A stretch of DNA of 64,000 bases from Naegleria gruberi (lineage: Eukaryota): the NCBI GenBank assembly GCA_000004985.1, contig GG738866.1; one strand, written 5' to 3'. This document shows positions 1,617 through 31,576 of this stretch, piece after piece. The translations under genes were made by a program, and so were the position numbers. Every line of letters begins with the position of its first letter. The first letter of the stretch is position 1. The notes under the pieces were generated by a model. The model did not search any database. It saw nothing but the letters and a program-made list of their open reading frames with translations, and had not been told where the DNA came from.

Positions 1617-4600
1617 ATGCTCACAAGCCCTAGAGAAGAATTTGCAGACTCGGGTGATGAAGATGATAAGGACGTTATCGATCAATTTAAAAAGCTGATA
1701 CGGCTTTCTAGGAATTCAAAACAAAATCATAGGAATTTTGCAAAAACTGAAATATCAAACAATATGAATTTTGGAAAGAATAACACTACAAGTGAAAAGG
1801 AAGAAAAAGTCAGTGGTATAGCTAATATGGTGATGAAACGGTTAATGATGGGAAAGTTTGTTACACAAGTCAGGCCTCATTTTCTCTCTGCTGTTCTATA
1901 TTCCGATGAGAGTAGAGAGGACGATTGTTCATCAGTAGCCAATGTATTGTACTCTCGACTCGTTGATTCAATTTCAAAAACTTCTAGGTCGCAAACCATT
2001 GTTCTTAATGGAAAAACAACAAGAAAGAGAGTGAAAACAACATTAACCTTGTTGAACCTTTTATTAGGAGCAAAAGGTAGTGCATCTATTGCTTCCGAAC
2101 AGCTTTCGTTATTTTACAGATTTGGTTCAACTAGTTTGGAACATGGAGAGTACTTGAAACCACTCTTTGCTTTCAATATTGGAATTACATTCAAAACTGA
2201 AAAGGGTTCGTCACAACTATCAGCTCTCGATTTTGATGTGGCTGCTTCTCTTTTCAATAGGTTTGAGATTGAATATTTACTTGAGAAGAAGAGTCCTTAC
2301 CAAACAGCTGTTCAATGTATTGTAGAAAGAATTGAAATATTCAAAGACTTGTTGTGTGCACCTTCAAAAATGTTAGAACCTCTGCTGGGCCAAACTTTTG
2401 TTGAATTGAAATATTTCGCTTTCATTAATAACTTGAAAAAGGAGGTACCAATGTCAGAGTCTAGGTTTTATGATTTTCTCAAGAATATTAAGAGGGCTCT
2501 TTTGTGTTCAACAAGAGAGATTAATACTCTTCTAAGAACGTTATCCATCATACTGCTATTATTGGATTTGGAAGATAACACATCATCTGATGCTTTCAAT
2601 GAGGCTATAAAGTCTGAAATAGAAAGCCATTTGGAAACATTTGACTCTGAGTTACTGGGTCAAATATGTGAAATATTACACATGGAACAATTTGAAGTAT
2701 TGAAAAGTGTTGGAATGATGATAGACAATAAGAGAGAAGAGCTAGGATTTGCGTTTACCAAGTGCACTAGTTTTGTTTGTATTTTGGTTGAATCACTATT
2801 CAGATGGATAGGACAAAAATGTAAAAAAGCATCAAAAGATTTTGTAAATAGTATTGAAATTGATGAGAATCTTGAATGCGAAAATATAGCAGCAGTTCAC
2901 ATTATAAGTTTCCCAGAATTGTCAGCAGAAAAGAACATCATTTATTCCTTTGGAGATTTATGGTGTAATGCCAGTTCTGAGCACGCCTACTCTTGGGCTT
3001 TACAATTTTTGGTAGAGGATATTTCAACAACCCATACAAAGGAAGGATTTGTGACTGATCCTCTTATTGATATTTTAGAAGGTTCTTCAAGCAGAGAAAT
3101 TATTGACTTTTTGTTTGGGAATACTGGTTTATTGTGTTCCTATCCTTCTCTTTCAGATACATCAACTTACCACGACAGAAAGGATGCTATAGATAAGGTT
3201 ATTTTCTTCTTCCGTAATAATTCATATTATGGACTAAGCAGTGTAAATATGGATCAAAATGATGGAAATCACTACATGATTAACCATTCATTTGGAAAAT
3301 TCAAATATGAAGTTGGTTCATTCTTTCCAAAATATATCAATGAAGATGTCCAGCACCAAATATTGAAGGCTGGAATACCAAGTGTTGAAATATCTGATCT
3401 ACACAAGGATTTCCTTCATTCAATGAAGAGTTTATTCTCACCGACTGCCTTGAACTCGGATCCGACTTTTGTAACCTTTTTCCATTTGAAAACCAATACA
3501 TCAACTAATGATTTAATGCAACAAATGATTAATAGCCAAGTTATGACAGTCTCTGATGTATGTGAAAAGTCCTTTGATGTTACTCTTTCGAAGAAATCAT
3601 TCTGGAAAGTTTTTCATCCACTTTCATACAAAAAGTTTTCAAAAGATACCGCTCTTGACCTGGCAGTTTCAAAGATACTTCTCCACTCTATTGGATTTCA
3701 AAAGAGTGGTCAAACACAATTTTATTTTATTGGCAAATCCTCAGTTATGCTTAAAAGAGATACTTACGAAACATTGAGAGCGCACGTTTTTGATGTTATG
3801 AATGAAGCTGCAACAGTTATTCAAAAGTTGTGGAGGCGCTATAAGTTGAAAAAGAAATTGAGGGAATCTATTAAGGAGGCTATTGAAAACAACAGGAAAG
3901 AAATTAAAAAGAAGCCCTCTCCTCAAAAAATTGAAATACCAAATGAAGAAGTGCTGTTTTCAAAGCCAAAGATGGCTGTCAGCACCACTCCTCTAAGCGA
4001 AAAGAAGAAGAAACTTCAAAAGTCATATGCTTATGGATTAGTAAAAAGAAAAGAGGCAATTAAAAAGAGAGCCGCTTCTCCAATGAAGAAACCAAAGCCA
4101 CAAAAGGTAGAAAAGGTGGATATCGACACTCAGGTATCTGTAATTCAAGCATTAATTCGTGGTAAATTGGCAACCAGACATATGTCTAAAAAAGTTGACC
4201 TTAGTTTAAAGATCCAAAGATTGTACAGAGAAAAGAAGAGGAATGATATTGAAAGAGAAATAAGAAAAAGAAAGATTAATGTGATAAAAAAGAGAAACGA
4301 GCAAAAGAAACATGAGATTGAAAAATTGAATGTTGCCGCTAGGAAGATTCAACAAGCATGGGTCAACTATAAGGAAAATTATTTTCAAAAACAACTAATT
4401 GAGGCAGTGATCATAATTCAAAGGGCTTGGAGAGCTTACAAGTTGAAAAGGTCATTGAAAATTCTTCTAAAGATAAGACGAGATGGAGAGAGAAGGAAGA
4501 AAGAATATGAAGAAAGGGAAAGAAGACTGAAAGATAAAGAGATGCAAGTTGTAAGAGAAACCAAAGAATTGGAATATCAAAAACATATACTTGAAGAAAA

Positions 4601-5303
4601 GGAGAAGCTTTTTGTGAAACAGCACATTGTAGATAAAAAGCTGAAGGAAAAGGAAGAGCAGGTATGGAATTCATTACAAGAAATCAGCAATAGTCTGATT
4701 CATTCAAATAGAACTCAACTACCATTAAGCAGCCCTCCTCAACCACCTTCGAAAATTAGCAATCTTCCACTGCTACCTTCAAGTCAGCCAAAAAGACAGT
4801 TGGATGATTCATCAAAAGTTGCAACTAAAATGAGAGAATCATCAGTGAGAACAAAAACCAATATCACAAACGTGTCTAATAACTCAGAAGATAACTCGAG
4901 TTCTAACAAGAAAATTTCATATGCAGACCTGCTAAAAGAAGCCTATGGATCAGCATTCGAATCGAAAATTAAACCAAAACCTCCTTCTCTGAAAAAGGTC
5001 AACAAGACAGAATCAGAAATTGACAAATCAAAGATTGCATCTCCAAGAAAAGTCACTACCAATTCCCAAAACAAGAGTACCATTATTACAAATATTCCAA
5101 CAAGCAGAGTAGTTCCAAAACAACCAATACTTGAGCGTCAAACCCTTAATACTTCAAAATATCACCCTAGTACCATAATAGTTCCAGAAAAAGCAATGAA
5201 ACAGATGATTGAACGTAATGAAAAGAAGTCCAAGAAACCTAATGAAACGTGGAATCAATGGAATTTGCTTGTTCAGGAATTATCTAACGAATTTAATCCC
5301 TAA
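1617..5303 (+). CDS. Myosin-like protein with degenerate motor-domain motifs, three to four IQ motifs, an E/R/K-rich helix and an S/T/P/K-rich tail (1228 aa)
   Basis: The N-terminal ~730 aa are collinear with a myosin head, but the signature motifs are degenerate. SSVANVLYSRLVDSI...QTIVLNGKTTRKRVKTTLTLLNLL replaces PHIFAIAD..AYR...[24 protein letters not shown] (P-loop). SLFNRFEIEYLLEKKSPY..ERIEIFKDLL replaces NSSRFGKFIEI..YLLEKSRV..ERNYHIFYQLL (switch I). LFRWIGQK...SIEIDENLE replaces LFLWLVKKIN...LDIAGFE (switch II). The converter-like TQFYFIGKSSVMLKRDTYETLRAHV is followed by the IQ motifs IQKLWRRYKLKKK, IQALIRGKLATRH and IQRAWRAYKLKR, then an E/R/K-rich stretch (RDGERRKKEYEERERRLKDKEMQ...). 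The myosin consensus was recalled from memory. Confidence 0.75.
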   Translation: MLTSPREEFADSGDEDDKDVIDQFKKLIRLSRNSKQNHRNFAKTEISNNMNFGKNNTTSEKEEKVSGIANMVMKRLMMGKFVTQVRPHFLSAVLYSDESREDDCSSVANVLYSRLVDSISKTSRSQTIVLNGKTTRKRVKTTLTLLNLLLGAKGSASIASEQLSLFYRFGSTSLEHGEYLKPLFAFNIGITFKTEKGSSQLSALDFDVAASLFNRFEIEYLLEKKSPYQTAVQCIVERIEIFKDLLCAPSKMLEPLLGQTFVELKYFAFINNLKKEVPMSESRFYDFLKNIKRALLCSTREINTLLRTLSIILLLLDLEDNTSSDAFNEAIKSEIESHLETFDSELLGQICEILHMEQFEVLKSVGMMIDNKREELGFAFTKCTSFVCILVESLFRWIGQKCKKASKDFVNSIEIDENLECENIAAVHIISFPELSAEKNIIYSFGDLWCNASSEHAYSWALQFLVEDISTTHTKEGFVTDPLIDILEGSSSREIIDFLFGNTGLLCSYPSLSDTSTYHDRKDAIDKVIFFFRNNSYYGLSSVNMDQNDGNHYMINHSFGKFKYEVGSFFPKYINEDVQHQILKAGIPSVEISDLHKDFLHSMKSLFSPTALNSDPTFVTFFHLKTNTSTNDLMQQMINSQVMTVSDVCEKSFDVTLSKKSFWKVFHPLSYKKFSKDTALDLAVSKILLHSIGFQKSGQTQFYFIGKSSVMLKRDTYETLRAHVFDVMNEAATVIQKLWRRYKLKKKLRESIKEAIENNRKEIKKKPSPQKIEIPNEEVLFSKPKMAVSTTPLSEKKKKLQKSYAYGLVKRKEAIKKRAASPMKKPKPQKVEKVDIDTQVSVIQALIRGKLATRHMSKKVDLSLKIQRLYREKKRNDIEREIRKRKINVIKKRNEQKKHEIEKLNVAARKIQQAWVNYKENYFQKQLIEAVIIIQRAWRAYKLKRSLKILLKIRRDGERRKKEYEERERRLKDKEMQVVRETKELEYQKHILEEKEKLFVKQHIVDKKLKEKEEQVWNSLQEISNSLIHSNRTQLPLSSPPQPPSKISNLPLLPSSQPKRQLDDSSKVATKMRESSVRTKTNITNVSNNSEDNSSSNKKISYADLLKEAYGSAFESKIKPKPPSLKKVNKTESEIDKSKIASPRKVTTNSQNKSTIITNIPTSRVVPKQPILERQTLNTSKYHPSTIIVPEKAMKQMIERNEKKSKKPNETWNQWNLLVQELSNEFNP

Positions 5304-5371: not shown

Positions 5372-8300
5372 ATGTCGGAGGAAACACCTGTGGAACAACA
5401 AATATCCTCCAATATTGATGATGATCATCATCAGGTGGAAAATACTACCACTAGCATCACTGAGGATACCAACAATGATACATCGACTGTTAATGAACAA
5501 ACAGAAGATGAAACAACAAATATTGTCGAACAAACCTCCGAAGAATCAAAGCAGGAAGAAACAACAATTGAAGAAAATACATCAATAGAAGAAAAACAAT
5601 CTGTTGAATGTAATAACAATGACGATACTATTATTCAACCAACAACAGAAGAATCTACAAAGGTAGAAGAACAAGTAACTTCTCCAACGAGTGAGACCAA
5701 TTTTGATAATGGTGATTGGTTGGATGGTGATTCTTTTGCCACAACCGATGATCATCAACAAGAAACATTGTATAATAACGATCAATCTTCTACTGAAAAT
5801 AGCACACTGCCCGAACAAACAAATCTAGTGAGTGATAGTGTTATTTCTGCTCAATCAACAGATGAACAACAAGAAGCAACAACAACAAACACTGAGGAAC
5901 CAATAGTTGAAGAACAATCATCCGAAAAAGTAATTCCTAATACTTCATCACAGGAAGATTTTGGAGATTATTCAGAGGATGCTTCAGAAGCAATAGTTAT
6001 TGGAGAGACAATGCACGAACACAATTCATCCCAAGATGTAAATAATCAAGTGGAAATACCTTTGGAAGAATCTGTACAAACCAATGAGTCCAACACCTTG
6101 GAAAGTACAAACAAAGTAGAACATTCCGATAGTGTTGTTGAAGAGACTAATAACGAAAATTCAGATGAGGGATTTGCAAATAATGATGATTTTGGTGATT
6201 TCCCAAGCACAGCAACAGCAACCATGGAAACACCAACTATTGAGGAGCCATCAACAATAGTGGAATCTACATCTCAAGAGGGTAGCAACCAAACTTCTAC
6301 TGAGGATAATCTTAATTCGTCTGAACAACCTGCCGAAGATCAACTTGAGGAATCAACCAATCCATCAGAAGAAGGTAATAAGCCAGAAACAACTGTAGAA
6401 ACTGAATTCTCCTCCGTCCAAGAGGAGATGAAGTTTGCAAATGATGAAGATTTTGGAGATTTCCCAACATCGACCGAGGTGGAAACATCCCAACCTGCAC
6501 ATATTAATGAAACAACTGAACCAGTCAGAGAATTTGCAGAAGATGAAGATTTTGGAGATGTTCCAGTATCTACTGTGGTGGAAACATCCCAATCTACACT
6601 CGTAAAGGAAACAATCTCTGAACCTGTACCGGTTCAAGAATTAGCCAAGGATGAAGATTTCCCAACATCTACAGAGGAAACAGCCCAAAAAGAAGAGCAT
6701 GTTAATGACACGAATGAAAAAATAGAATCTGTTGATTCAACAGGCCAAGAAATTGAAATTGTTCAACCAACCACACAAGTTACTGGGTTTGACGATAATG
6801 ATAATTTTGGTGAATTCCCAGAGGTTGCTGAAAATACTCATAAGGTAAAAGGGTTTGGTGATGACGATGATTTTGGCGAATTCCCAACAGAACAACCAAG
6901 TGCACACACTGAAACTGTTATACAGCCAGCAACACAAGAGGAGAAGTTTGTAAATGATGAAGATTTTGGAGATTTCCCTCAACCTACACTCACAAATGAA
7001 ACAATTTCTGAACTAGAATTTGCCAAGGATGAAGATTTTGGAGATTTCCCAACATCAACTGAGGAAACAACCCACGTAAATGAAACAAGTTCTGAACCAG
7101 TTCAAGAATTTGCTCAAGGTGAGGATTTCGGAGATTTCCCAACATCTACTGAGGAAACATCCCACGTAAATGAATCTACTAACCCACCAACAGATGAAAC
7201 AAATGGTGGATTTGCAGAGGATGATGATTTTGGTGATTTTGCTCCAGCAGTTGAATCGACTGAGGCTAATGCAGAGGATGATTTTGGTGATTTTGCTGAA
7301 CCTACAACAGATTCTACTACAGAACAACCAACAACTACAGCAGATCATAATGAAGAAGACTTTGGAGATTTCAATGAGCCTACCCAAGAATCTACTAAGG
7401 AAGATGAAGACGATTTCGGTGGATTTGGGGAAGCAAAGGAGGAGGAAGAAGAACCTGTTGCTAAACCAGTTGAGATCAATTATGCAGATCTTCTTAAGGA
7501 TCAAAAACATGTTATTGATTCTATTCTTTCAATTGACCAGATCAAAAACGAGGACGAATTTTCCAAAGTTAAACAATCTGTTCACAATTTAGTTAGTATG
7601 CTTATACCAACTGAACTTGCAGGAAATCCAGAGAGAACTGACATTACTGGAGAATCTGGAAATACTCTAGAAAAACTATTCAATATGAATTCCAATCACA
7701 ATGCAGATATTTTAAGCAAAATGTCTGTTTGGCAAAATAGTTGTGTGGAAAAACACTTTTTACTCTCACTAGGAATGGAAAAAAAGAAGAATAAGAAGCT
7801 TAACAAACCACTCAGAAAAGCACTTCACAGAAGAACAGCTTCCACAACCTACTCGACACCAATTTCTGGAGATACCCCTCAAAAACCAAAGATTGATACT
7901 CCAAATGTAGATCAAAGAATGAAGATTGATGAAATTGGTAACATTTCTCAAAGAATGCTAGGAGCAAGACATAGAAGAGTTGGTTCCACTGTGACTGACC
8001 TTCATCTTTCTCCAAGAACTGTTCCATTAGGTGTAAACACAATGGAACAGGCTGTTTCACCAACCGCTACAAGTCCACTCCCAACTACTCCTGTATCTAC
8101 CAATAAGTTTACTGGAAACGTTCCATCACCAAGTTTATCGGCTCAACACACTGATGATCTCATCAATTCTTACACTCCATCTATCAATACGCCTTCCTCA
8201 AGTAAGCCAAAGAATGCTGAATTGGATGATATTGCAGCTTTAGTATTTGGTTCTGGATTTGCCTCTCCAACAAAGGAGATACCAAAGACAGAAGTCAAGG

Positions 8301-10228
8301 TTGCAACCAGTACCATCAAAATTACAACCACTTCTGCCTCGCCTTCAGGTGTTGCTCCTCAATCATCAACTGCATCTCAAAAACCTTCTGCTAGTAACAA
8401 TGGTTTTGATAACGATGACTGGGGAAGAATCATTCCAAACATTTCCACAAATACCAATGATGTTAAACCTGTTAAGCTAGATTCACCTGGTTTTGAAAAC
8501 GACACCAAACAATCTGCTACTATTTCCCAACAACCAAAGCCATCTCTATCACCTGTTAAAAAAGAAAGTGTTGTTTCTGCCAACGACGATTTTGGTGACT
8601 TCCCAGAACCAAAGTCAACAAAAGAAGAAACTGAATGGTCAAGTAATGATTCATGGGATGCACCTCCTCAAACATCTCCAAAAGCTACTTCAACAACTGA
8701 CTCTTGGTCTACACCTGAGCCAAAGGAGGTTTCAAATGATTCTTGGGGAGATGACAACAAGTGGACTGAACAATCATGGGAACCTTCACCACCAAAAGCA
8801 ACAGAAACTAAATCAGAAGTGCCAGTCAAGAAGATTGAATCTTCTGTTGTCTCAGCTAGTGAAGATGATTTTGGAGATTTCCCAGAACCAAAAGATCATG
8901 ACCCACAACAACACGATTCTTGGGGAAATACCCAAAATAATTCATGGGAAAGTTCTAGCAATAATTGGGCATCAAATAATGATTCATGGGGAACTTCTCA
9001 AAATGACTCCTGGACAACCCAAGTTGACTCTTTCAAACCTGAGCCAACCTCTTGGGAAAGCTCGTCCATAAGCAATACTAACAATGCTGCCAGCTCAACA
9101 CCATCATTTACTGATCAAGGTTTTGCCAATGATGATTTTGGAGATTTCCCAGTTGTAAAGGAGGATTCAAAGCCTCAAGCAGATTCTTGGGAAACTCAAA
9201 TACCAACCACTATTGAACCAGTCCAAACACCAGAAGCTTCAGTTCCAACTCCATCGTTCCAAACTACATCTCAACCTAATAGTGGATTTGACGACTTCCC
9301 AAAACAACAAGACGAGCAAGGTTTTGGTAACGATGATGATTTTGGAGATTTTCCAGAGCCACAAGACCATTCCCTTAAACAAAATGACAACGATGATTTT
9401 GGTGATTTCCCAGAGCCTCAAGATCACAAACCACAAGATGATTCATGGGGAAGCAACATTCAACCTGTCTCTAACAACGACTCTTGGCTTTCAGCTATTC
9501 CTACAAATGTACAAACTTCTGTTAAACCTGCTCAATTAGGAGGGTTCGATGATTGGTTGTCTCCTGCAACAGTTTCAACTCCACCTGCACAATCAACAGG
9601 TACACCGCTAAGTACCCCTCAACCAATTTCAGATGATTGGCTTTCAGGATCCATTTCTACTCCAACAGTTCCTCAGTCTCAACAAACAACTCAACCTACT
9701 GTAGTTGCTGATGATTGGCTCTCAGGATCTAGCTCTACAACAGCTCTTCCCCAAACTCAACCTGTTGGTGATGATTGGCTTTCTGGCTCCATTTCCACTC
9801 CAACAACACAATCATGGTCAACTGCTGCTGTTGCATCAACTGTTGAAACAACTGAGGATGATAGCTTTGGAGATTTCCCAGAACCAAAGGATCACGAACC
9901 AAACCATCAAGATAACGATGACGATTTTGGTGATTTCCCAGAACCTCAAGATCATGTACCAAAACAAACATTTTCCAATGATGGATTTGATACTTTCCCA
10001 GTTTCACAAAATATTATTATTCCTCCTGTTCAAACAAAGCCAATTGGTGGATTTGACGATTGGTTATCTACTCCAACCTCTCAATCAACAGGGTTTTCCT
10101 CCCAACCAACTTCCCAACCTGTAATTTCTGATGATTGGCTCTCCACTACCACCAGTGCTACTACTTCTCAACCATCTACAAATAATACTGCTGCTGGTAA
10201 ACCAAATGATCTTTTTGAATTTTTCTAA
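5372..10228 (+). CDS. Large acidic, low-complexity protein (1618 aa) with about 20 DFGDF(P) motifs, multiple DDWLS and DSWG motifs and a short non-repetitive central island
   Basis: A single ORF starts only 68 bp after the previous stop. Recurrent (D/E)(D/E)DFGDFP peptides lie between positions 6180 and 9950. DDWLS(G/T) repeats lie between 9535 and 10140. Composition is D/E/T/S/P/Q-rich. Confidence 0.8.
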   Translation: MSEETPVEQQISSNIDDDHHQVENTTTSITEDTNNDTSTVNEQTEDETTNIVEQTSEESKQEETTIEENTSIEEKQSVECNNNDDTIIQPTTEESTKVEEQVTSPTSETNFDNGDWLDGDSFATTDDHQQETLYNNDQSSTENSTLPEQTNLVSDSVISAQSTDEQQEATTTNTEEPIVEEQSSEKVIPNTSSQEDFGDYSEDASEAIVIGETMHEHNSSQDVNNQVEIPLEESVQTNESNTLESTNKVEHSDSVVEETNNENSDEGFANNDDFGDFPSTATATMETPTIEEPSTIVESTSQEGSNQTSTEDNLNSSEQPAEDQLEESTNPSEEGNKPETTVETEFSSVQEEMKFANDEDFGDFPTSTEVETSQPAHINETTEPVREFAEDEDFGDVPVSTVVETSQSTLVKETISEPVPVQELAKDEDFPTSTEETAQKEEHVNDTNEKIESVDSTGQEIEIVQPTTQVTGFDDNDNFGEFPEVAENTHKVKGFGDDDDFGEFPTEQPSAHTETVIQPATQEEKFVNDEDFGDFPQPTLTNETISELEFAKDEDFGDFPTSTEETTHVNETSSEPVQEFAQGEDFGDFPTSTEETSHVNESTNPPTDETNGGFAEDDDFGDFAPAVESTEANAEDDFGDFAEPTTDSTTEQPTTTADHNEEDFGDFNEPTQESTKEDEDDFGGFGEAKEEEEEPVAKPVEINYADLLKDQKHVIDSILSIDQIKNEDEFSKVKQSVHNLVSMLIPTELAGNPERTDITGESGNTLEKLFNMNSNHNADILSKMSVWQNSCVEKHFLLSLGMEKKKNKKLNKPLRKALHRRTASTTYSTPISGDTPQKPKIDTPNVDQRMKIDEIGNISQRMLGARHRRVGSTVTDLHLSPRTVPLGVNTMEQAVSPTATSPLPTTPVSTNKFTGNVPSPSLSAQHTDDLINSYTPSINTPSSSKPKNAELDDIAALVFGSGFASPTKEIPKTEVKVATSTIKITTTSASPSGVAPQSSTASQKPSASNNGFDNDDWGRIIPNISTNTNDVKPVKLDSPGFENDTKQSATISQQPKPSLSPVKKESVVSANDDFGDFPEPKSTKEETEWSSNDSWDAPPQTSPKATSTTDSWSTPEPKEVSNDSWGDDNKWTEQSWEPSPPKATETKSEVPVKKIESSVVSASEDDFGDFPEPKDHDPQQHDSWGNTQNNSWESSSNNWASNNDSWGTSQNDSWTTQVDSFKPEPTSWESSSISNTNNAASSTPSFTDQGFANDDFGDFPVVKEDSKPQADSWETQIPTTIEPVQTPEASVPTPSFQTTSQPNSGFDDFPKQQDEQGFGNDDDFGDFPEPQDHSLKQNDNDDFGDFPEPQDHKPQDDSWGSNIQPVSNNDSWLSAIPTNVQTSVKPAQLGGFDDWLSPATVSTPPAQSTGTPLSTPQPISDDWLSGSISTPTVPQSQQTTQPTVVADDWLSGSSSTTALPQTQPVGDDWLSGSISTPTTQSWSTAAVASTVETTEDDSFGDFPEPKDHEPNHQDNDDDFGDFPEPQDHVPKQTFSNDGFDTFPVSQNIIIPPVQTKPIGGFDDWLSTPTSQSTGFSSQPTSQPVISDDWLSTTTSATTSQPSTNNTAAGKPNDLFEFF

Positions 10229-10357: not shown

Positions 10358-13300
10358 ATGTCTGCTCTTAGCCACATCCTTAACACCCTCACCCTCCTCA
10401 TCACAATACTTCTGCTCACATCTCTATCACTCGGAGCCAAACAGCCATACATTCTTCCATACTGTGCCAAACTAACAGTAGAACCTTACAATGTGAAAAT
10501 TGCTACAGCTTCCACAACCATAACTTTCAAATCGACATCTGATCTGTGGTTCTTTCTCGACTCTTCATACTTTGCCCTTATTCCAAACAATACAGATCAT
10601 GGCAAGTTTGCTGACTTTGCTCGTTATTGTGTCTATTTGATGGACACTTCAACTTCCTACACTTATTTACCAGCTGTGAATAGTATGAATTTGACGAGTA
10701 CTAAAACTTTCACAGCCACATTTACCAGTTTACCAAATAACAAGAGACTCTCACTGTCAATGTCAAGTTGTTTCTTTACATTATACAGAGAGAGTGAATA
10801 TCATCAAGAGCTTGTGCCAATTCCACCAATTAGTATCTACAATTATGCAACTGGTACTGGAACTGTTTCATCTTTTGCTCCGACCTATGATTATGATTCA
10901 TACTATGCCAAGTATTGTCTTAATAAGGCAACGAATGATTCAAGATATTCAGCAGAGACTTTCACCAGCACAACTTCAACATCAACTGTAGCCAGTTCTT
11001 TATCTTTGATATCGGAAAGCACTTTTGCAAAAACATATTCCAATTCTGGACTATCTATTTCTGGTAAATGGAAAACAGACTCGTTCTCTTCGCAAATTAA
11101 TTCATTCACCTATTCCAATTACAATTATCAACTCTTCAATCCAATCAATATGAATTTCAAGAAAAATGCAACTTTTATCAAGTATCCTCTCAAATGGAAA
11201 CGTCACATTAATGTGGCATCTGAGTCTGTCAGTTTCACAGTGCCATCAGATACTTCCATCACAAAGAGATGTGCAGATCCTCAAGAATTACAAGATTTAC
11301 TCGACACCTGCATTTCTACCAATCAAATTTTTAAGGTAAATGATGTAGAAGGAGGAACTCCATGGCATTATGGAGCTAATCCTTCATCTCCAGCTGAGGT
11401 TTCAGATGTCAACATTTTAATAACCTATTCTTATTACGAAGCTATTTTCTATTCAGGACTGGCTCTTCCTTATTTGAGAGCTCTCATAGTTAATGGAACT
11501 TTGACAATTGCAAGAACTGACATTTCAAATTCATATTTTTATTGTGCAAAGAATACTTTGAGAAACCAATTCCAATATTGGGATTCCACAGTTTATCACT
11601 TTATCAAGTTTAGTACTATTCATAACATGTATTCATTTGATTCAAGTAGGAAGAGTTATGATTTGAATACAATGGCAGGAATTGGCATTGGATCTCAAAA
11701 TATTCAATTGACTAATTTCGAAAATCAAAATGCAAAGAGTGAGAATGGAGTTTCTTTGCAGATTAGTGATACTTCACTGGATGATACATTCTATTCTCAA
11801 ACAAGAGTTGTTCCAATCTATCAATATAACGAAACAATCAATTCAGTTTTTGATTTGACATTTATTTATGATTCTGAGCTTGGATCCAAGACAGGTGGTG
11901 CTTTGGTGACACAGGAAGATTTTGTGACAACTTATAAATCAACTGCTTGTGCTGAAAAGTATGGTTCCAGACTTGATACTCAATTGAGCAATTTCTTTAC
12001 GTCAAGTGCTTATACTTTTATTAGAATTCCAGAGTTTGCCAATAGACTAAACTATTCCAAGTCTATTTCCTATAATATAACATCAAACTCTATACAAATG
12101 AATTATCTAAACACTGAGCAAGCCGTTCAGTTCAGTTTACTAGTAGATTCTTCATTATTAGTTTACAAAGAGGCAAGAATTTCACTTGCAGATTATTCCT
12201 TCTTTGTAACACCAAATAGACAAGAATGGAATGAAATGAATGCTACCTTGAATGTAAATATAACAAATAGTGGAGAAATTAAAGGAACTTTTCAAGTGAC
12301 AGCAACTTGTGGTTCACCAATCACAGTTAAGGAAGCTAATGTCAAGACTGCTGACATTGAAAATGGAAAATCAACTTTGATTCAATTTGGAGTGACCAAT
12401 TCAGAATGGAAATCATATAAGGATTTACTAAATGTTTCCTGTTTGGTAAATGTTAAAATTATTAAGGAAGAATTATGGACCAGTACGAATAAGGAAATTA
12501 CTATATATGAAACTATTGTTTTGGATCATGGTTACTTTGTACCATATTGCGAACAAAAATATAACGAGCCATTTATTGAATTTTCTGAGAGCCATTTGAA
12601 TCAATCCAAATTTACAAGAATTTCGAATACGTTTTACAATTCTATTCTATTCGCAGTGAAAAGCAATACAACAGATCAAATTTCTGCCAGATACAGTATA
12701 TCAGTCATCCCAACAGACGATAACCCATTTATTCTTTCAAATTCTTCAATACTGACCTTTGAATTAATACCTCAACAAGAAACAACTCTGAATTTGGAAA
12801 TTGTGGGAATTGACTTTGAGAAAATCATGAAAGAACGAATTAATCTGAGCAATTATACCTTCCAAATCACAATCCAGAATATGGATACAGCTGACTGTTG
12901 GTCCGATTATGGAAAATCCATCATCCAACCATTCACGTTCCATGTCGAATATTTGTGTCCAGACAATTTCGTAGGAGTTTTGTGTGATATTCCAGTATGT
13001 TATGGATACAATGCCACAGATATGGAGAACGTATGCTATGGACATGGGTCATGTCTAGCACCAGATACTTGTTCCTGCTTGAATGGTTATACTGCAGATA
13101 ATTGCTCTATACCTATTTGTTTTGATTACAATTCGACTGATGTCAGAGTGTGCTCATCACACGGTGAATGTTTATCACCAGATAATTGTCAATGTTCAAA
13201 TGAATGGACTGGTGATGAGTGTAGTATTCCAATATGTTTTGGAATTCCAGCAAATATTGAATCCACTTGTTATGGTCATGGTAACTGTTCTAATCCAGAT

Positions 13301-16300
13301 ACGTGTCAATGTATTTCAGGATATACATCATCTAATTGTTCAATTCCAGTTTGTTTTGGATTTAATGCTTCAGATATTTCAAATGTTTGTTCAAATCATG
13401 GACAATGTGTTTCACCTGATAACTGCCAATGCGAAAATGGTTATACTGGACTTAATTGCTCAATTCCAATTTGTTTTGGTAAGCATTTACTCATGAATGA
13501 ATCAGGTTTGATCTGCTCAACTCATGGTCATTGTGTGGATACAGACATTTGTCTTTGTTTTGATGGATATTATGGTCCACAATGTGAACTACATAATTGC
13601 TTCAATGTCCCGTTCAACGATTCAAACGTATGTTATGGACATGGTAATTGTACAGAACCAGACCAATGCCAATGTCAAGATGGCTACACTTCATCAAATT
13701 GCTCAATTCCAATTTGTTATAGTTATAATGCATCTGATATTTCAAATGTCTGTTCTACACATGGCAAATGTACTGAACCTGATGTGTGTGCATGTGATAG
13801 TGGGTACACTTCTTTGAACTGTTCAATTCCAATTTGTTTTGGAATTCATTTAGCAATGAATGAATCAATGTTAATTTGTTCATCACATGGTTATTGCGTT
13901 GAACCAGATACATGCATTTGCGAGAATGGATATTATGGAGCAATGTGTGAAATGCATAATTGCTTTGGTGTGAAATTTAATGACTCCACTGTATGTTATG
14001 GACACGGAAATTGCTCACAACCAGATTCCTGTGTTTGCTCAGATGGTTATACATCTGATAATTGCTCAATTCCAATTTGTTTTAACATCACAGCTTCAAA
14101 TTCACAAGTTTGTTCATCACACGGTGAATGTTTATCACCAGATAATTGTCAATGTTCAAAAGAATGGACTGGTGATGAGTGTAGTATTCCAATTTGTTTT
14201 GGAATTCCAGCAATTAATGAAACTGTTTGTTATGGACATGGTAATTGTTCTAATCCAGATACGTGTCAATGTAAATCAGGATATACTTCATCGAATTGTT
14301 CAATTCCTCTTTGTTATGGATTTAATGCTTCAGATATTTCAAATGTTTGTTCAAATCATGGACAATGCCTTGCTCCTGACACTTGCCAATGCGAAAATGG
14401 ATATACTGGACTTAATTGCTCAATTCCAATTTGTTTTGGTAAGCATTTACTCATGAATGAATNNNNNNNNNNNNNNNNNNNNNNNNNNNNNNNNNNNNNN
14501 NNNNNNNNNNNNCATTCCAATTTGTTTTGGAATTCCTGCAACCAACGAATCTGTTTGTTATGGACACGGCAACTGTACCTATCCAGACTATTGTACATGT
14601 AAGCATGGTTTCACATCTAGCTACTGCTTCATGCCAATGTGCTATGGATACAACGCCTCAGATGCTCAAGTTTGCTCTTCACATGGCCAATGCATCTATC
14701 CAGAGTTGTGTAAATGCTCAACTGGGTATACCTCAGAAAATTGTTCAATTCCTATTTGTTTTGGCGTTCATATCTTGATGAATGAAACAGCTCCCTGTTC
14801 CTCACATGGCCATTGTGTTGCTCATGACATTTGTCAATGTTATGACGGATATTATGGAGATAATTGTGAAATACATAATTGTTATGGAGTACCATTCAAT
14901 GATTCTGCAATGACTTGTTATGGCCATGGTAATTGTTCATCTCCAGATATTTGTCTTTGTGAAGAAGGTTATGTTTCGGATAATTGTTCGTTACCAGTTT
15001 GTTTTGGGCTCAATTCTTCTGATTCTAATGTTTGTTCTTCTCATGGACAGTGTATTAAGCCCAATGAATGTGAATGTTCGGTTTATTTTACAGGATTGCT
15101 TTGTGATATTCCAATATGTTTTGGAATTCCAGCAAGTAATGAATCTACTTGTTATGGACATGGTAATTGTTCTAATCCAGATACGTGTCAATGTATTTCA
15201 GGATATACTTCGGATAATTGTTCAATTCCAGTTTGTTTTGGATTTAATGCTTCAGATATTTCAAATGTTTGTTCAAATCATGGACAATGTATTTCACCTG
15301 ATAACTGCCAATGCGAAAATGGATATACTGGACTTAATTGCTCAATTCCAATTTGTTTTGGAAAACATTTACTCATGAATGAATCAGATTTGATATGCTC
15401 AACTCATGGACAGTGTGTGGATACAGACACTTGTCTTTGTGGTGATGGATATTATGGTCCACAATGTGAACTCCATGATTGTTTCCAAGTGCAATTCAAC
15501 GATTCAAACGTATGTTATGGACACGGTAATTGTACACATCCAAACCAATGCCAATGTCAATATGGTTACACTTCATCCAATTGCTCAATTCCAATTTGTT
15601 ATAGTTATAATGCATCTGATATTTCAAGTGTTTGTTCTGCACATGGTCAATGTATTGAACCTGATTTATGTGAATGTCTAAATGGTTACACTTCTTTGAA
15701 CTGTTCAATTCCAATTTGTTTTGGAATTCATTTAGAAATGAATGAGTCAATGTCAATTTGTTCATCACATGGTTATTGCGTTGGGCCAGATACATGCATT
15801 TGTGAGAATGGATATTATGGAGCAATGTGTGAATTGCACAGTTGTTTTGGTGTGAAATTTAATGACTCCACTGTATGTTATGGACATGGAAATTGTTCAC
15901 AACCAGATTCCTGTGTTTGCTCAGATGGTTATACATCTGATAATTGCTCAATTCCAATTTGTTTCAACATCACAGCTTCAAATTCACAAGTTTGTTCATC
16001 ACACGGTGAATGTTTATCACCAGATAATTGTCAATGTTCAAATGAATGGACTGGTGATGAGTGTAGTATTCCAATTTGTTTTGGAATTCCAGCAAGTAAT
16101 GAAACTGTTTGTTATGGACATGGTAATTGTTCATATCCAGATACGTGTCAATGTAAATCAGGATATACTTCATCGAAATGTTCAATTCCTATTTGTTTTG
16201 GATTTAATGCTTCAGATATTTCAAATGTTTGTTCAAATCATGGACAATGCCTTGCTCCTGACATTTGCCAATGCGAAAATGGTTATACTGGATTTAATTG

Positions 16301-19300
16301 CTCAATTCCAATATGTTTTGGAAAACATTTACTCATGAATGAATCAGATTTGATCTGTTCATCCCATGGTGGGTGTATTTCACCTGATACATGTCTATGC
16401 GATAATGGATTTTATGGCCCACAATGTGATTTATTCGATTGTTTTGGAATACAATATAATGATTCGAATACTTGTTATGGAAATGGTAAATGCATTTCAC
16501 CAAATTTGTGCGAATGTTACGATGGATGGACATTTACAAATTGCTCCATTCCTTTATGTTATAATTTAACAGCCTCTGATACGAATGTTTGTTCTTCACA
16601 TGGAAATTGTCTGAAACCTAACGAATGCCAATGTCACGAAGGATTTACATTTGAAAATTGTTCAATTCCAATTTGTTTTAACGTGAACGCATCAGATTCT
16701 AATATTTGCAGTGGACATGGTACATGTATCTCTCCAAATAATTGTTCATGTGAAGAGAATTATTTTAATGCCAATTGTGAAGAAACTACTTGTTTTGGAC
16801 TTGTTTCTAATAGTTTACAAAGTTGTGGTGGATTTGGTAATTGTACAGCATTTGATATTTGTGAATGTGACTCGAAACATGTTGGAGAAAACTGTTCCAT
16901 TACTTTTTGTTTCGGATTACTTTCTAACAATTCGAACAATGTTTGCTCGGGCAAAGGTCAATGTTTAGAATACGACCACTGTAACTGTTCACAAGGTTAC
17001 TATGGAGAATCATGCGACTTATTCGATTGTTTCGACATGCCAAAAAATTCTTCACTTGTCTGTTCAGGAAAAGGTAAATGTTTAGATTCGAATATTTGTA
17101 AATGCGGTATAGGATTTTATGGAGATTATTGTCAAGATTTTGATTGTTTTGGAATTCACAAAGATGATCCAAATGTCTGTTCTAGAGTTTCTCCATGTAC
17201 TTCTCCCAATAATTGCTCCTGTCCAGCTGGATATTACGGAGCTAGTTGTGAACTATTCAATTGCTTTGAAATTCAAAGCAACTCCTCTAAAGTTTGTTCT
17301 GAACATGGGAAATGTCACTTGCCAAATAATTGTTCTTGTGAAGAAGGATATTTTGGGAGAGATTGTTCAGAATTTGAATGTAATTTCATTCACAAAAATA
17401 ATGAAACTGTTTGCAGCTCAAATGGAAAATGTCACTCACCAAATAATTGTTCATGTTTTGATCATTATTATGGAGAAGATTGCGAATTATTTAATTGTTT
17501 TGGGAAAGCATTCAATTCTTCACTGGTTTGCTCTGGAAATGGCCAATGCCTCGATTACAATAATTGTAAATGTAATATATCATTTTTAGGTGTGGAATGC
17601 CAAGATTTTACCTGCCATGGATTACATTTTAATGATTCGAATGTTTGCAGTGGAAATGGAAGCTGTTTATCTTTGGATAATTGCACATGTTTTGATGGAT
17701 TTACTGGGAGTGATTGTGAAATTAATATTCCAGATCCAATTATTGAGAGAAATGAAACTAATAACCAAACTGAAACAACAAATTCAACTCTATTTAGTAA
17801 TCAAACAAGTAGTGATGATAATTCTACCCTGTTTGATAATTCCACTTTGATTAATGGAAATAATCAAACTGAAATGTCTAATTCAACTTTAGAAAGCAAT
17901 CAAACTGTTGTTATTGAAAACTCAACACTACCATTAACGAATCAAACCCTTAATTCATCTTCCATAAATGGAAATCAAACTGAGGTATCAAATTCAACAG
18001 CACTCACAAGTAACCAAACTAATGTTATTGATAATTCTACTTCTTCTGAAAATTCAACATTATCAGCCACCAATCAAACTTTGAATTCCACTTCTGTAAA
18101 TATTAATAACCAAACCGAAACTAATTCTACTGATTCCAATAATTCCACTCTAGAGTCGTGTTCTCAACATGACGGTATACAATGTTCTGGTAATGGATTT
18201 TGCAATCATTCTGAATGTATTTGTGAAAATGGTTACCACGGAACCGATTGCAATCTATTCGAATGTTTTGGAATCAATTCGACTAATTCTCAAGTCTGTT
18301 CTGGTAATGGCCAGTGTGAATCTCCTAATTTATGTGCCTGTAAAGAAGGATATCTATCACCCAATTGTTCCTCATTCACTTGCTTTTCCAAACTAAACTC
18401 AGAACCATTAGTTTGCTCTGGACACGGATATTGCCAAGATCTAAACTCGTGCCAATGTGATTCTGGTTTCTATGGCCCTCAATGTGACCTTATCAAATGC
18501 TTCTCCGTCCTCTCCAATGAATCATCAACAGTTTGTCAAGGTCGTGGAAATTGCACAAATCCTGACACATGTCAATGTGAAACGGGATATCACGGTCCAG
18601 AATGTAACATTCCAGTATGTTTTGGCAATTACAATGAAAATTCAACAAGTGTTTGTAATGGAAATGGTCAATGTTTTGCAAAGGATACATGTCAATGTAA
18701 TGAAGGATATCTTGGTGAAGAATGTCATTTGACAGTCTGTAACAAAACTTCATGTGTTTATGGTGTTTGTGAAAGTGCTTTGAATTGTAAATGTAATGTT
18801 GGATATGGAGGAAAAAATTGTGAGCAAGTCATTTGTTTTGGTCATTTGGCATCTGACATTAATGTTTGTAAGGGAAATGGATATTGCATAGCTCCTGACA
18901 AGTGTAATTGTTCAAGTTTGAAATATAGTGGAAAGGAATGTCAATTCGAACAAGATTCTGATGAGCAATGCTCCATTTATGGAGATTTAACAATTTTTAA
19001 TTCTAATTGGATGAGTGAAAGTTTGAAAATTGGTTTGAGTGGAAAATTGAATCAAACTTTGAGGTCAACTATCAAATATTCTCCTAATTTATTTTCAATG
19101 AATAGTTTCAAATATCTAATCAAGATTCAAAATAACGGAATTAGAAGTTTCGAATATTCTATTCGATCATATTGTGAAAATGGAAATTCTTTCAAGAGTT
19201 TAGGAAAGATGGTTAACTCTATTGAAAGCTCTAAATCATTAACTCAATACGAAAGTATCCAAATTGAAAATGATGCTTTTGGATTTGCATTCTATTCTCT

Positions 19301-20696
19301 TGACGAAAGATTTGAAAATATCGAATGCAATATCGAACTGAGTATGAAACCTCTAGATAGAAAAGACAATTGTTTGGTTTATGATTCTATTCATGATCCT
19401 ACTTCTTCATATAACTACAAAATATTGATGATATTTGAGAATGTTGATTCTTGCCTCTTTATGAAAGAAAATGAAAATGGTCTAGTTGACTTGACCATTC
19501 AAAATTCAGTCCTATCAAGCCTCACAAATCAATCTTCTGAATTATACAATTATGAAACCAATTCTACAGAAAGCTATCTTAAAATTCTTTCCATTTTCCC
19601 ACAGAAGCGTAATAATTGGCAAATAATCCAGTCAACCAATGACAACAACACAACAACCTCAACATCTGCATCTCTGTTAATCACAGCTCAATTAATCAAT
19701 CCAGAAAATCTCTACGGTATATTCATTCCTGCTCTATACTGCCAGGACGACAGTATTTCAAGTGGGGACTCCTTTACAACAAGTTCTAGCTCTCTAACTC
19801 TTTATCATGAAATGTCAAAATTAGTTTTCCAATTCAACATTACAATTCAAAACATTTCACAAGATTTGATTGATTATGGAAGAGTCAGAGGTGGTAAGGA
19901 AGGCACAGCATCCATTAATATCGATTCCATGAACCTTAATTGTTCATTACTACTCATACCATCACCTGCCAAATGTTGGACATCAAAAATTGATAACCAA
20001 TCCAAACGTTCTCTTCCACAACCTTCTACTCAACTCCAACTCTACCTCCAATCACTCAAAAAACTAATATGTCACTTTACCCTGCCAATTGTCTCTGGCG
20101 AATTTAAATTCATCCAAAGTGTCAGATCATTCGAAATTGCCCTAACCTATACTTGTATGACTCTTGGATTCGCCTCAATGATTTGCACAACCAAAGGTCC
20201 AAGAGATCGTAAACACTCCCTACTACAGTTAGTAGATTTCGTAAAACAAACTAGACGAAACAAGCTCGAACAAGATGAACAAGACGAAACTCATTCCACC
20301 CATGAAACAGAGAAAAATTTACCTTACTGCGACAATTGTGGGCATAAAACCTTGAAAAAGGCGAAATTTGAGATTAGCTTTGATGGTCAACAATCAGAAA
20401 GTGAAATTGGATTTTTCGTGTGCGAACAGCAAGAATGTTTTGAAGCATTGTGTTCGTTATACAATGAAAATTATAGTGAATATTTCACATGTTATGATTG
20501 TAGATCTGGTCAATTGGTGAAATTCCCGCCATTTTTGATGGTGGGTGTGGATTGTGTTGATGATTTGCCTGCTGGTGCAGAATCACAAATTTTGTTGAAT
20601 GCCTTTGATGCTGATGAATATGGAGATCTTGATGAAGAAACAGTAGACGAAACATTTGATACAGTGTTATTGGATTCGAATACTAGTAGATCTTGA
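10358..20696 (+). CDS. EGF-like repeat transmembrane protein, about 3440 aa or more. It has a signal peptide, an ~870-aa N-terminal domain, more than 45 tandem CFG-type EGF-like modules, an N-glycosylation-sequon linker, further EGF modules, a C-terminal domain, one transmembrane segment and a Cys-rich cytoplasmic tail. The CDS is interrupted by an assembly gap.
   Basis: The N-terminus MSALSHILNTLTLLITILLLTSLSLGA is a signal peptide. Six-Cys units of ~38 aa end in ...GYTS.NCSIPICFG. A hydrophobic segment IALTYTCMTLGFASMICTT lies near 20150. The two ORF-track ORFs (10358-14602 and 14457-20696) are the same gene on either side of the 50-N run; the frame changes across the gap because the gap length is arbitrary. 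Confidence 0.8.
12960..17730 (+). repeat. Tandem coding repeat array (EGF-like modules), including at least four copies of a ~960-bp super-repeat
   Basis: The string tgaatggactggtgatgagtgtagtattccaat recurs at 13201, 14161 and 16041. ttttggaattccagcaa... recurs at 13241, 14201, 15121 and 16081. Spacing is 960 bp, apart from the copy across the gap. Confidence 0.8.
14463..14512. other. Assembly gap (50 N) inside the EGF-repeat array
   Basis: The sequence shows a run of exactly 50 n characters. Near-identical repeat DNA flanks it on both sides. Confidence 0.95.
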
Positions 20697-25883: not shown

Positions 25884-26802
25884 ATGTCCACATCATTTCA
25901 ACAGCTTTCAGAAAAAATGAAACGAATGTTTGGAAGCCGTACGAACAATACTGACAAATCAAAAGATCAGTACGTTCTTGGCTCTTCCTCCAATAACAAC
26001 AACAACAACAATACCAACAGTAATAATAACAATGGTAGTAATACTAATGGTGGTAATACTACTACTTCTACCAATAATTCTCAACAACCTACTACATCAA
26101 GTCAACCACCACCACAAAATTCATCCAAACAAGCACCACCAAGAAAAGGATCACGGAATATGGAAATTTCCAGACCAACTAGTTTTAGATTATTGCAAAG
26201 TTTCGCCACAACAGACTCCAATTCTTCTTCATCAAAATCTAACGGCCATCCATATTCAAATGGCGGGGAAAGTAAAAAAAATTCATCATCAAATGGCAGC
26301 AGCAATACATCCTCATCCGCATCATCTACAAGTGCAACGAGTAATAGTCAGACTAGTAGTAGTAGCAGCAGTAGCCTTTCGATTGTTTCGTCCATTGATA
26401 CACAATCATTGAGTTCTCAGGGATCCGTTTCGGGAGATGTAAATATTACCATCAATGATGATCATCATAGCAATGGTCAGCAAAATATGAATTCGGGAGA
26501 GAGAAGTGAATCACCCAATTCAATCACTCCACAAAAGTTGCAAATACCCTCTCCAAAGGCTATGCATCATGGAAGAAGTCCAACATCTTTCAATGTTCCT
26601 TCCTTAACTTCAGTGTTGGTGCAACAGGGCGATAAGGTGCATCATCGAACAAAGTTTAATGAAATTTCTGTTCGTCAATTATCTCCAATGAGTTCTAGAT
26701 CTCCAGTCAAATCTCCTGAATTGGAGTTGACAGAAGAAAGACTCAATAAGATAAATGAGGATTTTGAGGCTGTTTTAAAGAGTAGAGCAGTCAAGCAATA
26801 TG
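25884..26802 (+). CDS. Formin, exon 1 (Ser/Asn-rich N-terminal region)
   Basis: ATG at 25884. The exon ends ...AVKQY plus one nucleotide, with the donor GTATGT at 26803. Confidence 0.7.
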
Positions 26803-26852
26803 GTATGTTTATTGATATATGTTTTAGTATATTTAATCCTGAATATTATTAG

Positions 26853-29800: not shown

Positions 29801-30133
29801 CCAAAGCAATTGGATGAATTCTATCAATATGCCAAATCTGAAATGCAAAAAATTAACAAGGCCCAAGAAAAATTGGAAAAGATTTTGAAAGAGGTTGCCA
29901 AATTCTTTGGCGAAAAGGAGAAGGATGTCTGCGATACTCCTCACTTATTCTTCACTGCTGTTTCAAACTTCTTGAAACAACTCGACGCTACTTTTACCAA
30001 GCTCAAGGAAGAAAAGGAAAAGAACAAGGATGACCAATTAAGAAAAGAATTGAAGAACTTTTTGCAGAATAGAAGACCAGAAGGAAACATGACCATTCTC
30101 TCAGCAGTAGCTAACGGTGATATTAAACAATAA
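26853..30133 (+). CDS. Formin, exon 2 (GBD/FH3, FH1, FH2); spliced protein about 1399 aa
   Basis: The 50-bp intron (26803-26852) ends in ttattag. Splicing is in frame (phase 1) into ...EIEYVKKNWSLK.... The FH1 region carries (I/V)PPPPG(M/S)G repeated eight times at 28590-28810. The FH2 signature is LVNFLNK...VYGFKLNFLTKLGDIKSSSDPNRSMMNYLCEFL. The ORF-track start at 26864 is GTG, not a real start. Confidence 0.8.
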
Positions 30134-31504: not shown

Positions 31505-31576
31505 CTCCCATGCCGGGAATTGAACCCGGACCTCCTGGGTGAAAGCCAGGTATCCTAGCCATTGGACTACACGGGA
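31505..31576 (-). tRNA. tRNA-Glu: tRNA-Glu (anticodon UUC), 72 nt, no intron, CCA not encoded
   Basis: The minus-strand sequence TCCCGTGTAGTCCAATGGCTAGGATACCTGGCTTTCACCCAGGAGGTCCGGGTTCAATTCCCGGCATGGGAG folds as a cloverleaf. The acceptor stem is TCCCGTG/CATGGGA (one G-U pair). The anticodon stem is CCTGG/CCAGG with loop CTTTCAC, giving anticodon TTC. A T-loop GGTTCAATTCC is present. Confidence 0.85.

Follow-up and report, generated by a model that had tools for sequence, protein, structure and literature searches.

A gap-interrupted Naegleria gruberi gene predicted to encode a giant EGF-repeat surface protein with a recently duplicated EGF block

Results

A single gene probably spans the only gap in the window

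Within a 64,000-nt stretch of Naegleria gruberi DNA (contig GG738866.1; hereafter the window), positions 10358-20696 on the + strand most probably hold one intron-free gene, interrupted by an assembly gap inside a recently duplicated block of epidermal growth factor (EGF) modules. We put the probability of this reading at about 0.85. The predicted product is a protein of at least 3,457 aa with ~47 EGF modules. A script scan of the window found one N-run only, of 50 N at 14463-14512. The open reading frame upstream of it (ORF1; 10358-14462, + strand) begins with the first ATG downstream of the preceding stop and continues for 1,368 codons without a stop as far as the gap. The frame downstream of it (ORF2; 14514-20696, + strand) comprises 2,060 open codons and ends in TGA at 20694-20696. 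ORF2 contributes neither a start nor a signal peptide, and its first in-frame Met is aa 40, inside a module.

The two frames were assigned to one gene because ORF1 is open to the gap, ORF2 lacks a start and a signal peptide, and EGF modules are encoded on both sides. They were also assigned to one gene because a Willaertia magna protein, KAL9658154.1, carries homologues of the N-terminal domain of ORF1 (the head) and of the C-terminal part of ORF2 in one polypeptide. The head aligned with residues 7-838 of this protein (query 10-861, E 1.5e-58), and the juxtamembrane, transmembrane and tail regions of ORF2 aligned with residues 1424-2059 (E 4e-76, 31% identity over 598 aa). An earlier reading of the same DNA, made from its letters only (the sequence-only reading), had already joined the two ORFs into one gene, and the W. 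magna protein supports that proposal. That a single gene crosses the gap is, in our estimate, very probable.

The phase shifts across the gap (10358 ≡ 2 and 14514 ≡ 0 mod 3). One base overhangs at each edge, T (14462) to the left and C (14513) to the right, which requires a true gap length L ≡ 1 mod 3. Since 50 does not satisfy this, the 50-N size is arbitrary and the change of frame is an artefact, as the sequence-only reading had held, the intactness of the gene being assumed. The stop listed at 14602 arises only from reading the ORF1 frame through the Ns.

The differing frames might instead reflect two genes, a secreted head-plus-EGF protein ending in the gap and an EGF-transmembrane protein starting in it, and the N. 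gruberi protein D2V061 is indeed annotated as head plus EGF modules without a tail. However, the D2V061 model ends abnormally within an EGF repeat and is probably truncated, ORF2 offers no signal peptide or plausible start, and a gap of tens to hundreds of nucleotides would need to contain a stop, an intergenic region, a promoter and a signal peptide. Head and tail also lie in one protein in the W. magna orthologue, and we regard two genes as extremely unlikely. A disrupted pseudogene, in which the frame break at the gap is real, would likewise go with different frames on the two sides of the 50 N and with a locus that has no gene model in public protein sets. Yet an N-run is uninformative on frame, both halves remain open over their full 1,368 and 2,060 codons in DNA of 34% GC, and the duplicated blocks described below carry more synonymous change than neutrality would predict (31 synonymous against 36 non-synonymous codon differences), which makes a pseudogene hardly credible. 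Returning to the single intact gene, none of our searches of public protein sets returned a self-match, showing that no gene model exists for 10358-20696. The scaffold gap, by breaking the frame, is plausibly the reason.

Domain architecture

The features of the locus, all within the window, are as follows.

10358..10435, + strand: start codon and predicted signal peptide MSALSHILNTLTLLITILLLTSLSLG, followed by AKQ (first ATG and hydropathy; the cleavage site is a guess)
10436..12949, + strand: predicted extracellular head domain, ~840 aa, with 16 N-glycosylation sequons and no Pfam family
12950..14462, + strand: EGF array part 1, 13 module junctions, the last module (KHLLMNE type) cut by the gap
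13225..14462, + strand: duplicated block, copy 1, modules A-H, A, B and part of C, right end truncated by the gap
14463..14512, no strand: assembly gap of 50 N (N-run; frame and register arithmetic)
14513..15101, + strand: five older, diverged EGF modules (a' b' c' d' h'), starting within an xIPIC junction
14514..17717, + strand: EGF array part 2, 27 modules, reaching the linker
15107..16344, + strand: duplicated block, copy 2 (BLASTN and shift scan)
17718..18158, + strand: N/S/T-rich linker, 147 aa, with 23 N-x-S/T sequons
18159..18941, + strand: EGF array part 3, ~7 modules, 42 Cys
18942..20129, + strand: predicted juxtamembrane extracellular domain, ~395 aa, without known family, aligning with W. 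magna KAL9658154.1 residues ~1440-1884
20130..20192, + strand: probable transmembrane segment FEIALTYTCMTLGFASMICTT, then KGPRDRK (hydropathy and W. magna alignment)
20193..20696, + strand: predicted cytoplasmic tail, 167 aa plus stop codon, with an acidic C-terminus

The predicted topology is type I and single-pass, with an N-terminal signal peptide and a C-terminal transmembrane segment. The signal peptide is clear, with a Kyte-Doolittle mean of 2.09 over 19 residues, and an equivalent hydrophobic segment (2.29) lies at the N-terminus of the W. magna orthologue. The transmembrane candidate is weak and is followed by basic residues. The W. magna segment aligned to it scores 2.28, and PRDR comes next in both proteins. 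Hidden introns yielding a better transmembrane segment were considered and rejected, the other frames containing no hydrophobic alternative. The tail carries a Cys motif, LPxCxNCGH...FxVCExQxCFxALxSLYNxNYxEYFxCY, at 20319-20501, which is kept in W. magna. The order given by the sequence-only reading (signal peptide, head, EGF modules, N-glycan linker, more EGF modules, transmembrane segment, Cys-containing tail) was thus recovered, with the head at ~840 aa and the transmembrane segment as its weak point.

Neither the head nor the juxtamembrane domain matched a Pfam family significantly, and no other ORF of the window resembled the head or the tail. When head, juxtamembrane domain and tail were compared with Pfam at E ≤ 10 and with PDB sequences, only sub-threshold hints emerged (CARDB, and a NOB1 Zn-ribbon with 18.2 bits where the cut-off is 24.9). 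An AlphaFold2 (AF2) model of the head contained moderately confident beta-sandwich segments at model residues ~590-660 and ~720-810 (gene residues ~616-686 and ~746-836). Foldseek related this model to generic tandem beta-sandwiches (RbmA, integrin alpha legs, transglutaminase barrels) with TM-scores ≤ 0.16 query-normalised and ≤ 0.34 normalised to short targets, which is a weak hint only.

The EGF modules

Each module has 39-43 aa and six Cys in the spacing C-x10-C-x5-C-x5-C-x-C-x8-C, and adjoins the next through a four-residue junction (C-x4-C) that is mostly SIPI. CSIPIC(F/Y)G junctions are encoded on both sides of the gap, as the sequence-only reading had described. The Pfam check that it proposed was run against the curated gathering thresholds, taking PF07974 (EGF_2), PF23106 and PF25024 as the tenascin/teneurin-type set. 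ORF1 and ORF2 scored 170.8 and 370.4 bits for EGF_2 (cut-off 22.1), 162.3 and 327.5 bits for EGF_Teneurin (24.3), and 147.8 and 355 bits for EGF_TEN (65), all far above the cut-offs. By Pfam, the predicted modules are of the tenascin/teneurin type.

Before the linker there are 40 junctions (13 in ORF1, 26 complete ones in ORF2 and the cut junction that opens ORF2), and ~7 modules follow it, giving ~47 in total. Counting Cys gave a similar figure (75 + 162 + 42 = 279, or ~46.5 modules). The figure of more than 45 modules before the linker, given in the sequence-only reading, is therefore too high. The EGF arrays before the linker contain 74 N-glycosylation sequons.

A block of at least 1.24 kb was recently duplicated

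We scanned the region against itself at all shifts. The strongest self-match lay at a shift of 1882, not 960, and paired 13225-14462 with 15107-16344 in an ungapped BLASTN alignment of 1,238 bp with 93.9% identity. At shift 960, high similarity was found over ~475 bp only (13031-13502 vs 13991-14462, 86%) and in the counterpart of this segment in the second block. The self-alignment that the sequence-only reading had suggested thus found repeats, with the best match at another shift. Its 960-bp unit in four or more copies (at 13241, 14201, ~15121 and 16081) was correct as to the period, which equals 320 aa or eight modules, and the copies are real, although they start ~20 bp away, at 13220, 14180, 15102 and 16062. 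Only copies 1 and 3 are full-length. The gap breaks copy 2 off after 283 bp, and copy 4 loses its similarity past ~340 bp. The modules are laid out as (E1 H0) (A B C D E F G H) (A B C, gap, a' b' c' d' h') (A B C D E F G H) (A B C d'' h'' ...). The 589 bp following the gap (14513-15101) had no match above 70% elsewhere in the window, and the five modules there are 62-72% identical to the canonical types.

An in-frame comparison of 13220-14461 with 15102-16343 (1,242 nt) revealed 77 nucleotide differences, with 31 synonymous and 36 non-synonymous codon differences. These numbers suggest a recent duplication of functional sequence and do not fit alleles or sequencing error. The recent event read from these comparisons is the duplication of a block of 1.24 kb or more, and the array may have grown by recent unequal recombination or duplication of such multi-module blocks.

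A gap inside a 94%-identical repeat is a typical place for a mis-join, and N. gruberi has head-plus-EGF paralogues. Contigs of two loci might therefore have been joined here, or the pre-gap 1.24-kb block might be a haplotype duplicate of 15107-16344. However, the paralogue heads are only 32-34% identical, leaving no near-identical locus to confuse, and a divergence of 6.2%, with 36 codons changed non-synonymously, exceeds what alleles would show. The left flanks of the two blocks also differ (64-71% identity), and head and tail jointly recreate the W. magna architecture. An assembly artefact of either kind is thus very unlikely.

The gap probably hides more than its minimal length

Copies 2 and 3 of the 960-bp period are spaced by 922 bp, a deficit of 38, and not of 40 as had been claimed. 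Adding 38 restores the frame, which 40 would not. Together with the 50 N, the deficit gives L = 88, and 88 ≡ 1 mod 3 restores both register and frame. This arithmetic shows only that the module register is kept. Any L of 88 plus whole modules (117-126 nt each) fits equally, multiples of 960 being one such family, and the earlier statement that the displacement is as expected for 40 + 960n goes too far, the value speaking for module register and not for a 960 periodicity.

The order of the modules points to a larger value. Modules of the YYG type (C5-C6 loop Y-Y/F-G) are followed by a non-IP junction, such as ELHN, EMHN or DLFD, in 14 of 14 cases, including all six 'HLLMNE' modules. The truncated module before the gap is of the HLLMNE type, and the sequence after the gap opens with xIPIC. 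The first module past the gap resembles type A (0.67) more than type D (0.59), and an H-type module precedes the A-type module in all five other cases. From the junction rule and the A-like module it follows that L = 88 is unlikely and that at least one extra module is probably missing. The missing sequence is likely to be at least 205 nt by this reasoning, and 682 nt would complete an eight-module unit.

A gap of exactly 88 nt would complete one module, with nothing collapsed and a protein of exactly 3,457 aa. It would restore the frame and the 960-bp register together, and a 50-N placeholder often marks a gap found to be small from linking information. But it would place an xIPIC junction after a KHLLMNE/YYG-type module, which none of the 14 such modules shows, and an A-like module where no H-type module precedes it. 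We therefore consider so short a gap unlikely. In favouring a longer one, we do not follow the sequence-only reading in calling repeat units probably collapsed. Collapse by the assembler may have occurred but does not follow from the data; the junction rule suggests only that more than 88 nt are missing. Metagenome scans returned no contig spanning the gap and no orthologous contig.

The gene belongs to a small Naegleria and Willaertia family

The head (863 aa) was searched exhaustively with HMMER against 1.84 billion representatives, and three relatives only were found, D2V061 (E 8.5e-104), D2VLI8 (E 2.6e-91) and KAL9658154.1 (E 1.5e-58). A word-indexed search had found none. The head alignment contains ~90 invariant columns. 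Like its relatives, the present gene combines a homologous head of ~800 aa with CxIPxC-type EGF modules directly after it. Sequence similarity thus places it in a small 'head-EGF' family specific to Naegleria and Willaertia, with KAL9658154.1 as the predicted orthologue. Homologous juxtamembrane and transmembrane regions and the cytoplasmic Cys motif further unite it with KAL9658154.1 in a W. magna-type subgroup; D2V061 and D2VLI8 have no tail homologous to ORF2. We found no description of the head-EGF family in the literature on Naegleria EGF/tenascin proteins.

KAL9658154.1 (ABK040_013066; 2,171 aa, uncharacterised) is co-linear with the N. gruberi product, having a signal peptide, a head (27-29% identity over ~850 aa), an EGF array, a juxtamembrane domain and a transmembrane segment. 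It shares the PRDR motif and the cytoplasmic motif CxxCGH...CExQxC...SLYNxNYxEYFxCY. In contrast, it has ~14.5 EGF modules against at least 47 in the N. gruberi gene. Its module pairs are separated by Asn-rich spacers, it lacks a long N-glycan linker, and its transmembrane segment is clearly hydrophobic.

The two N. gruberi relatives, D2V061 (NAEGRDRAFT_62182) and D2VLI8 (NAEGRDRAFT_69794), share the head (E 1e-91 to 1e-104; 32-34% identity), which leads into EGF modules of the CxIPxC(F/Y)G type. D2VLI8 has an N-glycan linker and a transmembrane segment like the present gene, but ~3 EGF modules and a different membrane-proximal domain. D2V061 resembles the present gene in its multi-module super-repeats, while its model stops inside the EGF array. 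This model has no signal peptide, ~22 EGF modules and a 393-aa self-period, and it ends in a non-EGF 'DLLHMS' inside the array. The D2V061 model, too, is likely to have been cut short by a repeat or gap, and rapid amplification with breakage of assembly or annotation may recur in this family. Nanopore data exist for N. gruberi NEG-M (PMC12344493), and the genomes of N. clarki and W. magna are available from long reads (PMC11702301).

The sequence-only reading had called the module type dictyostelid. This label does not hold for a gene that belongs to Heterolobosea and not to Dictyostelia: the CxIPxC(F/Y)G junction is common among Naegleria EGF proteins, the best EGF matches were in N. fowleri, N. 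lovaniensis and N. gruberi, the head has relatives in Naegleria and Willaertia only, and neighbouring ORFs are exact N. gruberi proteins.

Neighbourhood of the gene

The ORFs at 1617-5303, 5372-10228 and 46191-54182 are identical to N. gruberi EFC44778, EFC44779 and EFC44789. EFC44779 (5372-10228, + strand; 1,618 aa) is acidic and S/T-rich, with dozens of D(D/E)DFGDFP and many DSW/DDWLS motifs and a sub-threshold Pfam match to YBL010C/LAA2. Motifs of the DFGxF type bind clathrin-adaptor gamma-ear domains, and EFC44779 may be an adaptor-accessory scaffold. EFC44789 (46191-54182, + strand; 2,663 aa) has EGF modules at aa 1280-1349 and a C-terminal protein kinase domain at aa 2388-2651, a receptor-kinase-like architecture also seen in another N. 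gruberi EGF match.

At 25884-30133 (+ strand), ORFs 25884-26852 and 26864-30133 abut. With Drf_GBD, FH2 and a poly-proline FH1 region, the second encodes a diaphanous-type formin, and part of the formin's N-terminus may lie in the upstream ORF. A tRNA-Glu(TTC) at 31505-31576 (- strand) was the sole Rfam match in the window. Four abutting or overlapping long ORFs (947, 1,091, 468 and 466 aa) lie at 54190-63034 on the - strand, with a strong AT skew of about -0.3. One of them, 56987-60262, is a K/E/Q/L-rich coiled coil with long internal repeats and no Pfam match, and the four ORFs probably represent a single giant coiled-coil gene that introns or frame errors divide.

Discussion

Taken together, the open frames, the shared module type and the W. 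magna orthologue argue for one gene across the gap. Several points weigh against this reading as a whole. The single-gene model was built from genomic sequence alone, and the W. magna protein that unites head and tail is itself a gene prediction. The transmembrane candidate has a Kyte-Doolittle mean of 1.39 over 19 residues, under the classical threshold of 1.6. The junction rule is a regularity internal to the array and no proof of what the gap contains. The confidence of the AF2 models was low, with a mean predicted local distance difference test score (pLDDT) of 45.6 for the head (four-sequence alignment) and 31.9 for the tail region (two sequences). Finally, the stalk proposed below is drawn from the architecture alone.

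In the arrangement that we propose, the EGF array would form a long, glycan-stiffened stalk that projects the head from the surface of the amoeba and probably holds it far away from it. Judging by this architecture, the head could serve adhesion to, or recognition of, prey, substrate or other cells. The four-Cys motif conserved in the tail probably binds zinc, and the conserved tail probably couples the protein to cytoplasmic partners.

A more far-reaching view is that these proteins constitute a receptor class specific to Heterolobosea, with a novel head fold, an EGF stalk of fast-changing length and an undescribed cytoplasmic zinc-binding signalling module. If true, this would be an independent, non-animal invention of giant EGF receptors like Notch and teneurin, possibly serving prey, self or mating recognition, and the ~14 modules in Willaertia against at least 47 in N. 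gruberi, with blocks 94% identical, would represent its ongoing amplification. We consider this doubtful. On the plainer reading, a lineage-specific EGF-stalk surface protein, the locus reveals no new kind of system. It adds a gene of ~3,450 residues or more for which the N. gruberi reference protein set has no entry, and defines a small Naegleria/Willaertia family with an uncharacterised head and tail. It also illustrates cleanly the recent amplification of several EGF modules together, with a 1.24-kb block repeated at 94% identity and a module number that differs three-fold from that of the sister genus, and flags 10358-20696 for re-examination in long-read assemblies.

The sequence-only reading had likened the protein to tenascin or Notch. 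The likeness to the EGF modules of these proteins stands. The EGF arrays of tenascins and teneurins have the same module type, with six Cys, no calcium-binding consensus and closely abutting modules. In contrast, the FN3 repeats, fibrinogen globe and N-terminal assembly domain of tenascin are absent from the N. gruberi protein, for which no Pfam match to FN3 or fibrinogen was obtained, either with the whole ORFs (E ≤ 0.01) or with head and tail (E ≤ 10). Teneurins are type II proteins with an N-terminal intracellular domain and C-terminal NHL, YD-shell and Tox-GHH domains, whereas the N. gruberi protein is predicted to be type I and has nothing that matches NHL or YD. Notch and Delta are likewise large type I proteins with tens of tandem EGF modules, and there were minor Pfam matches to Delta/Jagged EGF models. 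However, the LNR, NOD/NODP, RAM, ANK and DSL regions and the calcium-binding EGF consensus are absent, with no Pfam match to LNR, NOD/NODP, RAM-ANK or calcium-binding EGF in the ORFs, head or tail, and neither the head nor the tail is related to its Notch counterpart. The likeness to tenascin, teneurin and Notch is confined to the EGF modules, and the N. gruberi protein is a lineage-specific EGF-stalk surface protein of an ordinary kind.

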